64,000 nt of DNA from an uncultured Candidatus Saccharibacteria bacterium (lineage in GTDB: Bacteria > Patescibacteriota > Minisyncoccia > Phycocordibacterales > CAIZLB01): contig CAZSLF010000004.1 in assembly GCA_964607805.1 (NCBI GenBank), positions 7,477 through 71,476 of the forward strand, written 5' to 3'. Position numbers and translations under genes: made by a program. The notes below the pieces were generated by a model. It made no database searches, was not told the origin of the DNA, and worked only from the letters and a program-made list of their open reading frames with translations. Positions 45,933-49,705 of the stretch are shown in pieces; within the stretch, counting starts at the first letter, position 1, and every line of letters begins with the position of its first letter.

Positions 45933-46087
45933 CCCTCCTGTCCATGCGACAAATTTAAAACCCCTTGACCAATTGGTCGGGGGTTTTGTGTTTGGGATTT
46001 GTAGAGGGTAATGAATATTAGGGAATTATCCAATATATTTCAGCATAGCTTTATTTTTTAAGGAAAATATGTACAATTGCTGGTAAT

Positions 46088-46159
46088 GGCCCTATCGTCT
46101 AACGGTTAGGACGAAGCGTTCTCAATGCTTAAATCAGAGTTCGATTCTCTGTAGGGTCA
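46088..46159 (+). tRNA. tRNA-Glu (anticodon CTC), CCA not encoded
   Basis: Hand-folded cloverleaf. Acceptor GGCCCTA/TAGGGTC, D-arm GTC-TAACGGTTAG-GAC, anticodon arm AAGCG-TTCTCAA-TGCTT, T-arm CAGAG-TTCGATT-CTCTG, discriminator A. Confidence 0.9.
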
Positions 46160-46188
46160 CAGCGGGAGCAAACGGAGTGCAGCGACAA

Positions 46189-46237
46189 GCTGTGACCCTA
46201 AGCAAGCAAACTGCTTTGCTTGCGTCAGAGAATCGAA
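46189..46237 (+). other. Antisense copy of the tRNA-Glu 3' end, split by a 25-nt insert containing a 9-bp hairpin
   Basis: gctgtgacccta (46189-46200) and cagagaatcgaa (46226-46237) together are the exact reverse complement of 46140-46163. The insert at 46201-46225 contains the 9-bp hairpin gcaagcaaa-ctgc-tttgcttgc. Confidence 0.85.
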
Positions 46238-46307
46238 AAGCTTTTCTATGTTTTGAGAATCTTTGATTCGATAAAACAAGAAAAGGTGTACAGCCCCTGT
46301 AAGGGGA

Positions 46308-46327
46308 GATTCTCTGTAGGGTCACCA
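46308..46327 (+). repeat. Second sense copy of the tRNA-Glu 3' end, carrying CCA
   Basis: gattctctgtagggtcac (46308-46325) is identical to 46143-46160. Here it continues as ..TCACCA. Confidence 0.9.
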
Positions 46328-46353
46328 TTTAGGACCAGCACGATAATAATCAC

Positions 46354-47166
46354 ATGCCGAACATAAAATATAAAACAGCTCTAGAAAGATTAATTAATAA
46401 TTTTAAGAATGACTTTTTGGGTTTTTCAAGAGAACAGTATACTTCTGATGGTAAACTTATACATCCAGGTGAATTTGGAGCATCAAGAGAGATTATTTCT
46501 AAAAAATTTATTGAAGACGTAGTTCCTATTTCCAAAAAAATTATAACTAAGGGATTTATTTTAAACTCAAATAACGAAACAACCACTGAGCAAGATTTAA
46601 TTATTTACAGTACTAATGATACACCTGTTCTTACTTTAGAAAATACAAGCTTTCTTCCGGTCGAAACAGTAGTTTCAGTGGGACAGGTAAAGTCAGTGAT
46701 ACAGTCAAAAAAAGATCTTAAAAAAATATTAGATAATTTAGTTAAAGTAAAAATGGTTAGAGATAATATGGGACACAGCTCAGTAATTTGGAGGAATCAT
46801 GAGCTATTTAACGGTAGCTATGGGTACTATAAAGATAATGCTTTTGATCAGGTTTTTACATTCGTTATTTGTGAAAAACTTAATTTTACTATTACACCAG
46901 ATGAAATAGATAAGTTGTATGATAGCGGCACTAAGGAATATTTAAAACATAATTTAATTTTAGACATAAGTAACGGTTTGTACGGTTATCAAATTAAAGA
47001 AGGGGATCCTTTTTTAGCGATACCATATACTATACACGGAAATAGTACACCAATACTCGTTGGTACCGAGAACGAATGGCACTTTAAACAATTTTTGACC
47101 AATATACACATTCATACTTCATCGAATACAGTTTTTCATCCAAATATGGGTAAATACATAAATTAG
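46354..47166 (+). CDS. DUF6602-like protein with restriction-endonuclease (PD-(D/E)xK)-type motif pattern
   Basis: 270 aa, AT-rich. GEFGASREIISKKFIEDVVP ... TEQDLIIYS ... LPVETVVSVGQVKS follows the G-x-x-RE / Q-D-hhh-Y / E-x-hhh-(E/Q)-V-K pattern that I recall for DUF6602. Confidence 0.6.
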   Translation: MPNIKYKTALERLINNFKNDFLGFSREQYTSDGKLIHPGEFGASREIISKKFIEDVVPISKKIITKGFILNSNNETTTEQDLIIYSTNDTPVLTLENTSFLPVETVVSVGQVKSVIQSKKDLKKILDNLVKVKMVRDNMGHSSVIWRNHELFNGSYGYYKDNAFDQVFTFVICEKLNFTITPDEIDKLYDSGTKEYLKHNLILDISNGLYGYQIKEGDPFLAIPYTIHGNSTPILVGTENEWHFKQFLTNIHIHTSSNTVFHPNMGKYIN

Positions 47167-47356
47167 ATAGTCGCACAAGAATGGTTGTTGTGATAAGGAA
47201 AAAATATTAGAAATGATCTAACAGGATAAGGTACCAATAAGTTCTATCTCGAGAAGGCTCACTAGAGAGTAAAATTCAAACTGCTTTGAATTATCCGTGA
47301 CCACAATTTAAACCCCTGTATTCATTAATTTATACAAAAAGTGCTAAAATGAATTT

Positions 47357-47938
47357 ATGGAAATTAAATTTCTCCTAGGAATTATCTCTACAGCAATTGC
47401 AGTCATTTGTTTCATTCCATACATAAAAGATATTCTTCGAAGGAAGACTGAGCCCCACACCTATTCTTGGCTCATATGGACAATACTTCAAACAGTAGGA
47501 GTAATGGCCCAGTTGAAAGAAGGGGCAGGTTACGGTGCATGGGCTTTAGGTGTGGGTGCATTATTCTGCTTCACTATATTCTTATTCTCCTTTAAATACG
47601 GAACAAAAAATATTTCAAAGTTTGATTTACTTTGCTTGATTGCCTCACTGTGCGCAATTGCAATTTATCTTTTTATAGAAAATCCTGTTTATGCAATTGT
47701 CGCAGTAGCACTTATCGATTTTGTTGGTTTCTTACCAACATTTAGAAAAGGATTTGAGGAACCGTTTACAGAAACAGTGAGCACATTCATTTTGAGTGCT
47801 ATGGCAAATGTTTTAAGTATTCTAGCACTTCAAAACTATACGGTTACAACTGTACTTTATATAGCAACCCTTTTCTTTACTAACTCTTCTTTTGCAACCA
47901 TGATCTTGGTTCGTAGAAAGTTTTTGCGAAAGAAGTAA
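47357..47938 (+). CDS. PQ-loop-like 6-TM membrane protein (paralog 1 of 3)
   Basis: 193 aa. The N-terminal FIPYIKDILRRKTEPHTYSW resembles a PQ-loop motif. Paralogs lie at 53080 and 53824. Confidence 0.6.
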   Translation: MEIKFLLGIISTAIAVICFIPYIKDILRRKTEPHTYSWLIWTILQTVGVMAQLKEGAGYGAWALGVGALFCFTIFLFSFKYGTKNISKFDLLCLIASLCAIAIYLFIENPVYAIVAVALIDFVGFLPTFRKGFEEPFTETVSTFILSAMANVLSILALQNYTVTTVLYIATLFFTNSSFATMILVRRKFLRKK

Positions 47939-48064
47939 TTTAGAGATTATTAAAAAAACCCAACCCCTTGACTTTTACAACCAAGTGTTGTATCTTATTT
48001 CCGCTGATCAGGAATGCACTAGGCCCAGTAAGCCTTAGCAACACCCCTGGCAGCAAACGCAGAC

Positions 48065-48742
48065 ATGTCCATTAACATACTACTCGACGAACAAAAGCTC
48101 CGGGAAGCCCCGGGGTTCAGTGATACTACTCGAACAGACGGTGGCGGCGGGATGATACTTGATAATACTCGTATTCCTGTCTCAGTCGACAACCTTGGCC
48201 GAATTTATATTACACTCAGCGATCACGCGAGCTTGGCCCCTTCGATCGAACCTTTTGTTACTGAGGTTTCCTTTTTTGTGTATGTTTCCGCTCAGCGGAC
48301 GCATCGTGAACTGGGTATCTATCGCCATGCAAGTGCAGAAGGCGAGGTTGATCTCCAAGAGGGAAGAGACAGTACTCAGTACTGGATCAAAGTAAGTGCC
48401 AAGAAGCTTGAGGATGCTCGTGAGCTGGTCAGACTATTTAAGATCGGCTCGATTCGTCCCGCCGACAGCTTCGAAGGGAGGCAGCAAGGCGAATCGAAAG
48501 AAGAGCTTGAAGCAAGACTTCGAACTGTTCTGGAAGAACTTGAGAGTTTGAAAGGGGAAAACGCTCTAAATGAGACTAACCTCGAGCATACAAGAGGCAT
48601 GCTGGATATAAGCCTTGACCGTGTTCGTGAGGTTTTCAAATTATCGGCAGCGCTCAGCAATCGACGTCTCAAGTGGCCCTGGTGTTCCAAACAAAAAGTT
48701 GCGTTGCTAATCAACTGTGCACTTAACAGAGAAGGTAAGTAG
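48065..48742 (+). CDS. Hypothetical protein with C-terminal coiled-coil
   Basis: 225-aa G+C-richer ORF with a TTGACT-type promoter about 90 nt upstream. The terminator cgacccaagcc..ggcttgggtttttttt lies at about 48783-48812. Confidence 0.6.
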   Translation: MSINILLDEQKLREAPGFSDTTRTDGGGGMILDNTRIPVSVDNLGRIYITLSDHASLAPSIEPFVTEVSFFVYVSAQRTHRELGIYRHASAEGEVDLQEGRDSTQYWIKVSAKKLEDARELVRLFKIGSIRPADSFEGRQQGESKEELEARLRTVLEELESLKGENALNETNLEHTRGMLDISLDRVREVFKLSAALSNRRLKWPWCSKQKVALLINCALNREGK

Positions 48743-48889: not shown

Positions 48890-49705
48890 ATGAACAAATC
48901 TTTTCTTAAAACTCTCGCAATCTCACTTTTGCTATTGAGCATTTTTATCGGAAACACAGCGGACGCTTGCAGAGTTAAATCGTATCCATGGTTCATAACT
49001 AATACAACTATTGATACGAGTACATTACCTCCTGGTATAACTTTTGTAAGTCACACTCTAAATCATGAATATGGACCAGATGGAAAATTTACAAGCACTA
49101 CAACTACACCATTTTATCTTCTACGACCAGAATCTGATAGAAAAAATGAAGCAGCAATTATTGACGGAGGTTACACTGAATTACCAGCACATGAAATACC
49201 ATTGTATAAATTAGTGGGAGGTGATCAATATTATTGGGATGGAGAAGATGGATGGAGTACGTATTACTGGTATGGAACAACTTCAAAGAAAGAGATGGAT
49301 CTTGTACTTAGAAATTCTGATGTAGGAATTAAGAATAAATTTGGAGGAAAACGACCAAAAAATGTAGAAGTTCCCGAACCTCATGATATTTCTTTTAAAG
49401 CGTACTATGGCTCCGAACCAATTTATATTAAGGGTAGGATGGAATATGCTTTAAACGAGGGTTTTTACCCAACAAATCCAAATGGTTGTAATAATATTTA
49501 CGGATCTTTGACTGGTTTGATAGTTGGATTAGGAGTTCAATTGTTGATAATCGGAGCAATCATATTTAGTCCAATTTTATTGTATAAGTTCTTAAGAAAA
49601 AGAATTTCAAGTGCGGTTACATCAAAAATAATAGTTGCAATTTATTTATTGTTAGTAATAGTTATCGTCTACGGTTTATTGCATTTATTCGGGTTTGTAT
49701 ATTAG
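48890..49705 (+). CDS. Secreted/membrane-anchored hypothetical protein
   Basis: Signal-peptide-like N-terminus (LLLLSIFIGNTADAC) and two C-terminal TM helices. Confidence 0.6.
   Translation: MNKSFLKTLAISLLLLSIFIGNTADACRVKSYPWFITNTTIDTSTLPPGITFVSHTLNHEYGPDGKFTSTTTTPFYLLRPESDRKNEAAIIDGGYTELPAHEIPLYKLVGGDQYYWDGEDGWSTYYWYGTTSKKEMDLVLRNSDVGIKNKFGGKRPKNVEVPEPHDISFKAYYGSEPIYIKGRMEYALNEGFYPTNPNGCNNIYGSLTGLIVGLGVQLLIIGAIIFSPILLYKFLRKRISSAVTSKIIVAIYLLLVIVIVYGLLHLFGFVY

Follow-up and report, generated by a model that had tools for sequence, protein, structure and literature searches.

Why should a tRNA gene be followed by both an antisense and a sense copy of its own 3′ end? The question is raised by a tRNA-Glu(CTC) gene in a 64,000-nucleotide (nt) stretch of DNA from an uncultured Candidatus Saccharibacteria bacterium, referred to here as the window, where the antisense copy is split by a hairpin and the sense copy carries the CCA that the gene lacks. 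These repeats are neither a chance occurrence nor a one-off scar: we are confident that the feature is one copy of a conserved family of tRNA-matched, structured insertion modules in Patescibacteria. The family, of which literature searches found no description, is previously undescribed and consists of protein-less, highly folded inserts of ~165 bases at tRNA 3′ ends. We further propose, at what we regard as even chances for the statement as a whole, that these inserts are non-autonomous mobile modules of tRNA 3′ ends whose antisense arms serve in target recognition.

ARAGORN places the tRNA gene at 46088-46159/60 on the forward strand as Glu(ctc), and it scores 58.6 bits with the Rfam tRNA model RF00005, for which the threshold is 29; the same model recognizes 46088-46159 only, and the downstream unit at 46192-46328 receives no tRNA call. 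With A73 at 46159 and C74 at 46160 the gene ends ...TCAC|AGC, so that a full CCA is not encoded. Its nt 54-74, which comprise the T-loop, the T-stem 3′ strand, the acceptor 3′ strand, A73 and C74 (46140-46160, forward strand), are the partner of the bipartite antisense and pair with it at 21 of 21 positions, also in minimum free energy (MFE) folds. A repeat finder returns that antisense as two perfect 12/12 inverted repeats, 46140-46151 with 46226-46237 and 46152-46163 with 46189-46200, and the split falls between G65 (46151) and U66 (46152), that is, at the T-stem/acceptor junction. Between the two halves lie 25 nt in which 46202-46210 pairs perfectly with 46215-46223 as a 9-bp hairpin (loop CTGC). 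The sense copy, in turn, is a direct repeat (D1) that matches at 18/18 positions between tRNA nt 57-74 (GATTCTCTGTAGGGTCAC, 46143-46160, forward strand) and 46308-46325, at a spacing of 165 nt; its downstream copy runs on as TCACCA, and 26 nt lie between it and the ATG at 46354. When up to 3 mismatches are allowed in a 21-mer search, the window shows these two sense copies and no other, where shuffled sequences lead one to expect 0.00, and the window holds no further core copies or cassette boundaries. The predicted RNA fold of 46088-46353 has z = -7.45. A first-pass annotation of this DNA had described the tRNA without CCA, the 12 + 12 antisense, the 9-bp hairpin and the 18-nt repeat extended to TCACCA, and all of them are present at the positions it gave.

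The locus is supported on both sides by two Logan contigs from SRR12762304, a separate assembly that may not derive from the window's sample: they match both flanks base for base, stop at 46116 (end of L175; L numbers denote loci) and resume at 46199 (start of L176), with 46117-46198 outside their cover. This break is what a repeat-rich tRNA locus leads one to expect. The two short-read assembly breaks lie inside the tRNA (46116) and inside the first antisense arm (46199), respectively, and such elements likely fragment Patescibacteria assemblies at tRNA genes and are likely under-reported.

The origin of the sense copy becomes apparent from related genomes. Protein homologues of the DUF6602 gene that follows the repeat in the window also adjoin tRNA-Glu at 80%, 77% and 69% identity, and in the first two of these loci (L283 and L284) the gene starts 24-25 nt after tRNA-Glu-CCA, with the element absent and a 22-nt trailer before the ATG; the trailer aligns with window positions 46326-46353. 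The trailer motif (CCA, 5-6 nt, GCTAGCACGAG) further lies directly 3′ of the tRNA in eight element-free metagenome loci, and it sits after the downstream sense copy, hereafter S2, and not after the tRNA, in the window and in L094. Measured against these empty sites, the window has gained 165 nt on the forward strand (46161-46325, or equivalently 46143-46307 owing to the repeat), as given both by the alignment to L283 and L284 and by the D1 spacing. The former CCA and trailer, together with the DUF6602 gene, now lie downstream, behind a second copy of tRNA nt 57-74, whereas the working tRNA ends ...TCAC followed by the module's own trailer; insertion after C72-A73-C74 split the encoded CCA, so that the working tRNA lost it and S2 kept it. 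It is therefore highly probable, as judged from sequence comparison, that the window element is an insertion with displaced CCA and trailer. The first-pass annotation had taken the direct repeat as the mark of an insertion at the tRNA 3′ end and had pointed to an empty site in related genomes as its counterpart; the loci with tRNA-Glu-CCA followed by the DUF6602 gene bear out both, while its proposal that the downstream copy supplies the gene with a CCA does not hold, the CCA and trailer of that copy being the ancestral ones.

There are two possible origins for S2 and its CCA: it may be the tRNA's own former end, displaced by the insert, or it may be the right end of the element, set against the CA that was there before. 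In L133, and likewise in the second unit of L119, arm 2 of the antisense agrees with S2 and not with the T stem of the resident tRNA. S2 must therefore move together with the element at least in its T-stem part, and the point of exchange is nt 66 or further 3′. Compared with tRNA-targeting integrative elements in general, the window copy thus has the flanking direct repeat and the empty orthologous site, and it has no internal integrase or recombinase.

The feature is not private to this assembly, as the first-pass annotation had allowed it might be. A metagenome scan by exact 18-mer yielded at least 120 loci, and 114 of the matches listed are tRNA-Glu genes; among the matches listed, 18 of 115 loci (window included) have the tRNA, then GTGACCCTA, then CAGAGAATC at a constant 34 nt further on. 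About 20 tRNA-Glu metagenome loci share the window architecture, with arm 1 conserved, and many of them have a second sense copy 145-190 nt downstream. D1-type repeats recur in L074, L132, L160, L161 and L005, and the repeat always ends after C72-A73-C74 in family members. A related class without long arms occupies 18-19 more loci among the matches listed. Family members measure ~150-330 bp (165 bp for the window copy) and are built in one order, which reads tRNA, trailer hairpin (usually a terminator), arm 1, hairpin P2, arm 2, hairpins P3 and P4, and S2.

In the window all of these parts are on the forward strand. The trailer between the tRNA and arm 1 spans 46161-46191, and its ends (AGC/GCT) lengthen the tRNA-arm helix; family-wide, the antisense is the complement of tRNA nt 54-74 (21 nt), and the window's 3 extra pairs belong to the trailer stem. 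A terminator scan finds no U-tract terminator in this trailer, unlike in most family members: a canonical terminator-like trailer is present in 14 of 18 family copies, where the terminator lies 0-3 nt before arm 1, and the window copy is an exception. Arm 1 (GTGACCCTA, 46192-46200) is the complement of the acceptor 3′ strand, A73 and C74, and arm 2 (CAGAGAATCGAA, 46226-46237) that of the T-loop and T-stem 3′ strand (nt 54-65); between them stands P2 (46202-46223, 9 bp, loop CTGC), which interrupts the antisense. There follow P3, a long imperfect hairpin seen as inverted repeat I3 (46241-46285); a conserved unpaired linker (GGTGTACAG, 46285-46293; family consensus GGTGTACWG or GGGTACTG in alignments A1 and A3), which also occurs in 5′-type relatives; P4 (46294-46306, CCCC TGTAA GGGG) with an invariant GTA in its loop; and S2 (46308-46327), which comprises tRNA nt 57-74, C75 and A76. 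Next to S2 on its 3′ side is the ancestral stretch that forms the trailer of tRNA-Glu and the leader of DUF6602 (TTTAGGACCAGCACGATAATAATCAC, 46328-46353), recognized by homology to L283, L284 and the eight metagenome loci. The 165-nt insert holds no real open reading frame (ORF).

Covariation strongly supports hairpins P2, P3 and P4. Eight short forms align across ~135 nt (MAFFT), and RNAalifold returns arm 1, P2, arm 2, P3, P4 and S2 with compensatory changes in 17 of 39 pairs. A covariance model built on these eight recovered 23 elements, whose model-based alignment has 93.8% of its cells paired, compared with 73.3% in shuffles (0/500 reach the observed value) and 36-48% when partners are slid by 1-3 columns; 33 of the 39 pairs change on both sides. 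Across the 23 elements, compensatory changes fall in 6 of 7 modelled pairs of P2, and covariation extends to all 9 of P3 and all 5 of P4. The MAFFT-based RNAalifold result agrees in direction with the covariance-model alignment. Pair counts in P2-P4 (G.U 33 vs. A.C 6) identify the tRNA-sense strand as the folded one.

The arms, by contrast with the scaffold, follow whichever tRNA they stand behind. The covariance model also matched behind tRNA-Ile(GAT) in L005 and behind tRNA-Arg(CCT) and tRNA-Leu(CAA) in L001, the closest related genome. Arm 2 pairs with the T-loop and T-stem 3′ strand of its neighbor at 12/12 positions for tRNA-Glu (CAGAGAATCGAA), tRNA-Ile (CTAGGGGTCGAA) and tRNA-Leu (GAGAGACTTGAA) and at 11 plus one G.U for tRNA-Arg (GCGGGAATCGAA), and arm 1 likewise tracks the acceptor 3′ strand, A73 and C74 of each of the four. 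Taken together, the arms pair with the upstream tRNA at 20-21 of 21 positions in 15 of 23 elements and, outside Glu, at 20/21 (Ile), 15/16 (Leu) and 15 plus 1 G.U of 18 (Arg). The antisense ends at tRNA nt 54 for all four tRNAs, and the segment from that nucleotide to the end of arm 2 adopts the same three-way junction as its MFE fold in each (z from -7.4 to -11.3), so that the junction the first-pass annotation had envisaged for one locus is a predicted fold that recurs behind four. The point at which P2 emerges from it is exactly that at which, in a real tRNA, nt 8-48 with the D and anticodon arms branch off the acceptor/T stack. The flanks of the trailer hairpin are mutually complementary and yet vary from element to element, which implies one continuous helix from tRNA nt 54 through the trailer, broken only by P2.

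A purely mechanical origin of the antisense must be weighed here. It could be a by-product of DNA mechanics, namely an inverted duplication centered on the tRNA terminator that arose by fold-back priming or template switching and is maintained by arm-to-arm correction, with S2 an ordinary attachment (att) scar. The trailer hairpin would be the symmetry center, the complementarity runs seamlessly into the tRNA end, and the tRNA arm, being under selection, would serve as the master copy; that mutations arise through template-switch correction at quasi-palindromes is well established. Such correction, however, should erase the 25-nt interruption by P2, the position of which is conserved and covarying, and it leaves aside the fixed antisense end at nt 54 in four different tRNAs, the covariation of P3 and P4, which lie outside the palindrome, and the homologous scaffolds common to different tRNAs and genomes. 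We consider this origin improbable, and the first-pass annotation's remark that simple integration does not explain the antisense is met by the finding that the antisense is a conserved, tRNA-matched part of the element itself.

The same folds make an activity as RNA the principal alternative to a mobile module with targeting arms, and one we hold to be rather unlikely. Here the module would act as a tRNA-like noncoding RNA or processing signal, or as an alternative-pairing switch: in a read-through transcript the arms and P2 would pair with S2 into an acceptor/T-stem mimic ending ACCA, RNase P would cut 5′ of arm 1, RNase Z or the CCA-adding enzyme would act at S2, and the products would be a discrete ~135-nt RNA and a defined 5′ end for the downstream mRNA. 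In a variant, the arms would pair now with the tRNA 3′ half, now with S2, and so serve for quality control or as a decoy, with the insertion history incidental. RNAalifold indeed sets both arms opposite S2, and the topology of the junction is that of a tRNA acceptor/T stack; S2 is intact at 18/18 positions in 5 of 8 short forms despite the divergence of P2-P4, and in the window it ends ACCA. The G.U excess lies on the transcribed-sense strand, the conserved unpaired GUAC linker and GUA loop resemble RNA tertiary or protein contacts, and the alternative folds differ by ~11 kcal/mol, the most stable prediction for tRNA plus unit (-101.9 kcal/mol) having the tRNA body paired with S2 and the tRNA's own 3′ end bound up in the arms, as opposed to a conventional cloverleaf with a self-contained unit (-90.7 kcal/mol). 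Tandem units after tRNA-Phe in L285 have no intervening terminator and are probably co-transcribed; tRNA and unit may be co-transcribed in the window as well, where the trailer has no terminator.

Against an RNA role stands, first, the position of the terminator 0-3 nt before arm 1 in 14 of 18 copies, which leaves no space for a promoter. Second, the arms fit the upstream tRNA better than they fit S2: this holds wherever a tRNA stands directly upstream, as it does in 19 of 23 elements (9-20 of 21 positions paired with S2), and S2 is mutated or truncated at many loci while the arms are intact. In L064, L134, L114 and L171, for instance, the arms still fit the tRNA perfectly although S2 is truncated. 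Third, the helix runs through the trailer only for the tRNA-proximal copy. Finally, were the two co-transcribed, the most stable predicted fold would open the tRNA's own T arm and acceptor stem.

That fold also recalls a tRNA with a T-loop insertion, and the 165 nt could accordingly be regarded as an intron-like insertion (at 56/57 in the T-loop or at 74/75 before CA) that is removed from RNA, joining the tRNA body to S2-CCA. The MFE structure of 46088-46328 is a cloverleaf of the tRNA body with S2 in which the first 3′ end is sequestered by the arms; the arms pair just upstream of the element, as a group I/II internal guide does; and related scaffolds occur inside partial tRNA copies. Patescibacteria are, furthermore, rich in tRNA introns, and group I introns have been described in the anticodon loops of their tRNA genes (PMC13011429). 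In the window, though, the upstream copy is already a complete tRNA and splicing is unneeded, group I and group II models (RF00028, RF00029) do not match, in most copies a terminator lies inside the would-be intron, and S2 has decayed at many loci with an intact tRNA. By known intron sizes, 165 nt without a group I core are also too small. We judge this explanation very improbable.

Least credible of the explanations considered is that proposed by the first-pass annotation, by which the RNA would act in cis as a leader that makes expression of the nuclease-like gene downstream depend on the state of the tRNA-Glu 3′ end. That gene (46354-47166, forward strand) encodes a DUF6602/PD-(D/E)xK NucC-like protein (Pfam PF20247, 3.9e-18; PADLOC PD_DExK/NucC), S2 ends 26 nt before its ATG, and the structure could occlude or expose the leader. 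DUF6602 orthologues nonetheless stand directly after tRNA-Glu without an element in L283 and L284, many unrelated genes, or other elements, are what follows the element elsewhere, and the element is also found behind tRNA-Ile, tRNA-Leu and tRNA-Arg; since the two occur without one another, the element is no regulator of the nuclease-like gene, and regulation of DUF6602 is not its function. There is no consistent gene-family association of the kind a riboswitch or T-box-like leader would show, and neighborhood clustering found no protein family enriched downstream. From its conserved position, the DUF6602 gene is an ancestral neighbor of tRNA-Glu and not part of the element. The adjacency recurs in several Patescibacteria with a gap of only 24-26 nt (window 46326-47166; L283 2903-3810; L284 2903-3810), and the conserved trailer between the two contains the palindrome GCTAGC within GCTAGCACGAG; tight spacing and palindromic trailer suggest co-transcription, shared control or an att site.

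We return to the reading of these inserts as mobile modules, for which arrays and mosaicism add to the occupied and empty sites. Units are arrayed in tandem in L005, L059, L134 and L161, and some stand behind kilobase islands, as in L096 with its 12-kb island carrying serine-recombinase gene fragments. In strains L124 and L156 the first unit is 97% identical and the second and third units differ. Window P3 is ~93% identical to P3 of the L001 tRNA-Leu element, and window P2 matches P2 of the L001 tRNA-Arg element at 20 of 22 positions with one compensatory pair, yet the arms of the window and of these two elements have nothing in common; modules have thus been exchanged between elements that serve different tRNAs in different genomes.

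How might such a module move? We propose that a recombinase or transposase encoded elsewhere moves it, now or recently, and that in a single-stranded form of the module, whether DNA or an RNA copy, the arms would pair with the module's own copy of the tRNA end or with a strand of the target tRNA gene. Pairing would rebuild a tRNA-gene-like duplex as a three-way junction in which P2 would be a built-in asymmetry marker, and the junction would mark the exchange point just after C74 (after CAC). Retargeting would proceed by re-templating or by quasi-palindrome correction of the arms. The scheme predicts an empty-site junction …GTAGGGTCAC|CATTTAGGACC directly after the tRNA body and a circle junction …CCCCTGTAAGGGGAGATTCTCTGTAGGGTCAC|AGCGGGAGC in a molecule without the tRNA 5′ part. 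That the arms act in targeting at all we put at somewhat under even; the fuller statement, by which these are nucleic-acid-programmed mini mobile elements whose ~150-nt protein-less scaffold picks its site through 21-bp bipartite pairing with a tRNA 3′ end, is retargeted by arm re-templating and is served in trans by a host or distant enzyme, is more tentative still.

Several points weigh against this proposal. The case for mobility is drawn entirely from insertion polymorphism, arrays and mosaicism: no excised or circular form of the element was seen, and no recombinase, transposase or reverse transcriptase gene is linked to it in the window (within ~8 kb) or at the other loci. Retargeting needs arm 1, arm 2 and S2 all to be changed, by a route that is a proposal only. 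Covariation and G.U excess fit RNA and folded single-stranded DNA alike, and three conserved hairpins with unpaired motifs are more elaborate than known folded att sites and would suit a functional RNA or a fold bound by protein; the terminator before arm 1 in most copies argues against strong transcription, although the window copy has none. As to sampling, every tRNA-Glu locus was recruited by an exact 18-mer, which under-samples P1 variation, and the covariance-model alignment is fitted to its model and leans towards structure.

Comparison with known systems places the family near several of them. Like integrative elements of tRNA 3′ ends and cis-mobilizable elements (CIMEs), it is inserted in the tRNA 3′ end and flanked by a repeat of nt 57-74, gives the tRNA a replacement end and usually a terminator, shows occupied and empty sites, and accretes in tandem with other elements and serine-recombinase islands. 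Unlike them, the window copy is 165 bp long and gene-less, has no homology to a larger parent element, and carries inside it a hairpin-split antisense of the att core together with covarying hairpins in a scaffold that serves several tRNAs. Of the traits of a CIME, att flanks are present and no recombination genes are seen, but an integrative conjugative or mobilizable parent sharing the scaffold is absent from 288 loci, IMG/VR, phages and plasmids.

With integron attC sites and the attP of CTX phage the family has in common that structure is kept while sequence varies, that a single strand folds so that two inverted segments rebuild a duplex site, that an extrahelical feature (here P2) breaks the symmetry, and that arrays form at a fixed chromosomal site, sometimes with cargo genes between units. 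It differs in that there are no GTTRRRY/RYYYAAC core and no dif-like XerCD sites, the helix ends being GTG...CAC (alignments A1 and A3), no IntI is nearby, the rebuilt duplex copies a tRNA gene end, and P3, P4 and the unpaired motifs have no counterpart; the window element does not therefore qualify as an integron attC. As at the ends of IS200/IS605 elements, which transpose as single strands by peel-and-paste, and of their non-autonomous derivatives, the palindrome-associated transposable elements, the element stands directly 3′ of a sequence complementary to an internal guide near a hairpin, folding is strand-specific, and tiny protein-less derivatives are known; excision after two CAC triplets would restore the empty site exactly. 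The guides of IS200/IS605 are 4-5 nt long and use non-canonical pairing, with no long direct repeat, whereas the window element has hairpins and a flank-complementary guide with 21 Watson-Crick pairs and an 18-nt direct repeat. No TnpA was found, and no genome-wide search for TnpA was made. By analogy, folded attC, CTX attP and IS200/IS605 end guides would share a logic with the present family, and their defining sequence features are absent here.

The internal guide and exon-binding sequences of group I/II introns and the bridge RNA of IS110 likewise join a conserved structured scaffold to bipartite segments that are complementary to the flanking target and vary with it. Here, unlike there, no intron model matches and no recombinase or reverse transcriptase gene is adjacent, the two arms bind the same strand of a target that is a single stretch of 21 nt, and that target is duplicated at the far end; no ORF family adjoins the element as it would an IS110-type bridge RNA. 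Lastly, arm 1, P2 and arm 2 resemble the 5′ three-quarters of a tRNA, as in tRNA-like structures and RNase P external guide sequences, and with a tRNA 3′ strand ending ACCA the acceptor/T coaxial stack is predicted to be rebuilt, but the T-loop is paired, not free, and there is no elbow.

Database searches placed the element in no known family. No Rfam match other than tRNA was returned for the window region (E <= 1), for three related loci (E <= 5) or for 14 loci (gathering threshold), and BLAST against phages and plasmids gave no match. In IMG/VR the 17-mer core has one match, a chance one inside a coding region, and the scaffold motif 106, with the P4 pairing kept in 1, in an unrelated context. 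Other identities were considered and set aside: a group I/II intron, on the lack of model matches, the complete upstream tRNA and size; a retroviral-type primer-binding site, as the arms lack the complement of CCA and are split; an H/ACA-like bipartite guide, as no unpaired nucleotides remain at the junction; an archaeal bulge-helix-bulge intron, as no such motif is evident; a minus-strand RNA, on the G.U vs. A.C counts; and a pseudoknot between the P4 loop GUA and the GUAC linker, whose covariation is inconsistent by eye. Among close strain pairs compared over the upstream flank for an empty site, only L071/L074 qualified, and L071 holds a different filler sequence.

Neighboring genes offer no enzyme for the module either. 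Upstream of tRNA-Glu lie a Mur ligase and a penicillin-binding protein, with no integrase; in the window, no recombinase domain was detected in 14 ORFs tested (46.3-56.6 kb and 38-46 kb), and tblastn with a large serine recombinase from related loci gave no match in the window, in keeping with the first-pass annotation's remark that no integrase is nearby. For the three ORFs that come after the DUF6602 gene and its neighbor region (47357-47938, 48065-48742 and 48890-49705), neither Pfam nor PADLOC gave a match. Relatives of the upstream epimerase all come from metagenome-assembled genomes of Patescibacteria (Paceibacteria or Parcubacteria) at <=69% identity, and none of their 53 genome loci has tRNA-Glu after the epimerase; this set supplied L001 and L005. 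A terminator-like hairpin at 45958-45994 (CCCTTGACCAATTGGTCGGGGG then TTTTGTGTTT) ends an upstream 70-amino-acid (aa) ORF ~95 nt before the tRNA, such that tRNA-Glu probably has its own promoter in 46000-46087. G+C content is 0.337 across the tRNA, the DUF6602 gene and the next gene (46001-48000), compared with 0.38-0.41 in the surroundings.

Other occupants of the same tRNA ends were observed alongside the family. Large serine recombinase genes abut tRNA-Glu convergently in L055 (2827-4545), L141 (211-1917) and L126 (8132-9736), and fragments of such genes lie in L096, L122, L137, L149 and L165; the last ~20 codons of the recombinase ORF are the antisense of the tRNA 3′ end, which places the island attP inside the recombinase gene. 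In L287 (393-2158) a 1.7-kb island with two ORFs lies between tRNA-Glu and the DUF6602 gene, flanked by a ~35-nt direct repeat of the trailer motif itself (…GAGAGGTAGTTCGAGCACTCGAGAAGGGT), making the trailer a second att site. In L119 (2564-4167, reverse strand) and L140 (3500-3741) units alternate with cargo, which in L119 is a Fic/DOC gene of 330 aa; the conserved right end of these arrays, TAGTTCTGAAAGCCACGCAAT|(A/G)GG(G/T)TCAC, is that of another element, one in which no more than the last 8-9 tRNA nt are reused.

A class-2 element without long antisense arms follows tRNA-Glu in L059, L065, L070, L077, L092, L098, L105, L111, L120, L129, L132, L133, L138, L157, L162, L168, L172 and L285 (2764-2900), in the last of which it takes the place of the window's element at the tRNA-Glu/DUF6602 junction. 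Its order is trailer hairpin, GTGAAG and a conserved module (GGAGC..ATG hairpin ..GCGAG.CGGGGTCG.. ACTTAGTGACTTGTGACCAC); it sometimes ends in P4 and S2 and has no Rfam match, and long class-1 forms contain a similar module. A sister scaffold (GUGAG, P2, CGCAAGACC, P3, AAGGUGUACWG, P4) is found 5′ of tRNA-Glu genes that are themselves intact, and is joined there to duplicated 5′ portions of a tRNA, which stop at ~nt 26 or nt 34; its sites are L161 (1400-1760, reverse strand), L165 (190-420, reverse strand), L172 (9717-9960, forward strand) and L099 (9481-9593), the last with no tRNA nearby. In L285 (1330-1760) tRNA-Phe(GAA) is followed by two tandem 161-nt units, each composed of tRNA-Phe nt 23-40, the sister scaffold and tRNA-Phe nt 43-73; the only terminator is at the end of this array, and the acceptor strand of the last copy differs.

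On a conservative reading, these data define a new family of structured motifs that is specific to Patescibacteria, a group whose small genomes are believed to hold little spare DNA, and account for recurrent assembly breaks and odd tRNA-end duplications in those genomes. They also show tRNA-Glu as a multi-tenant integration hotspot beside a conserved nuclease-like gene. If the arms direct insertion, the family would be a natural, compact form of programmable site choice, with 21 bp of specificity in ~150 nt and no linked protein, and would be worth mining for the enzyme that uses the element. Were the reading as programmed mini-elements true, the smallest bacteria would harbor a new class of DNA insertion that is directed by a guide.

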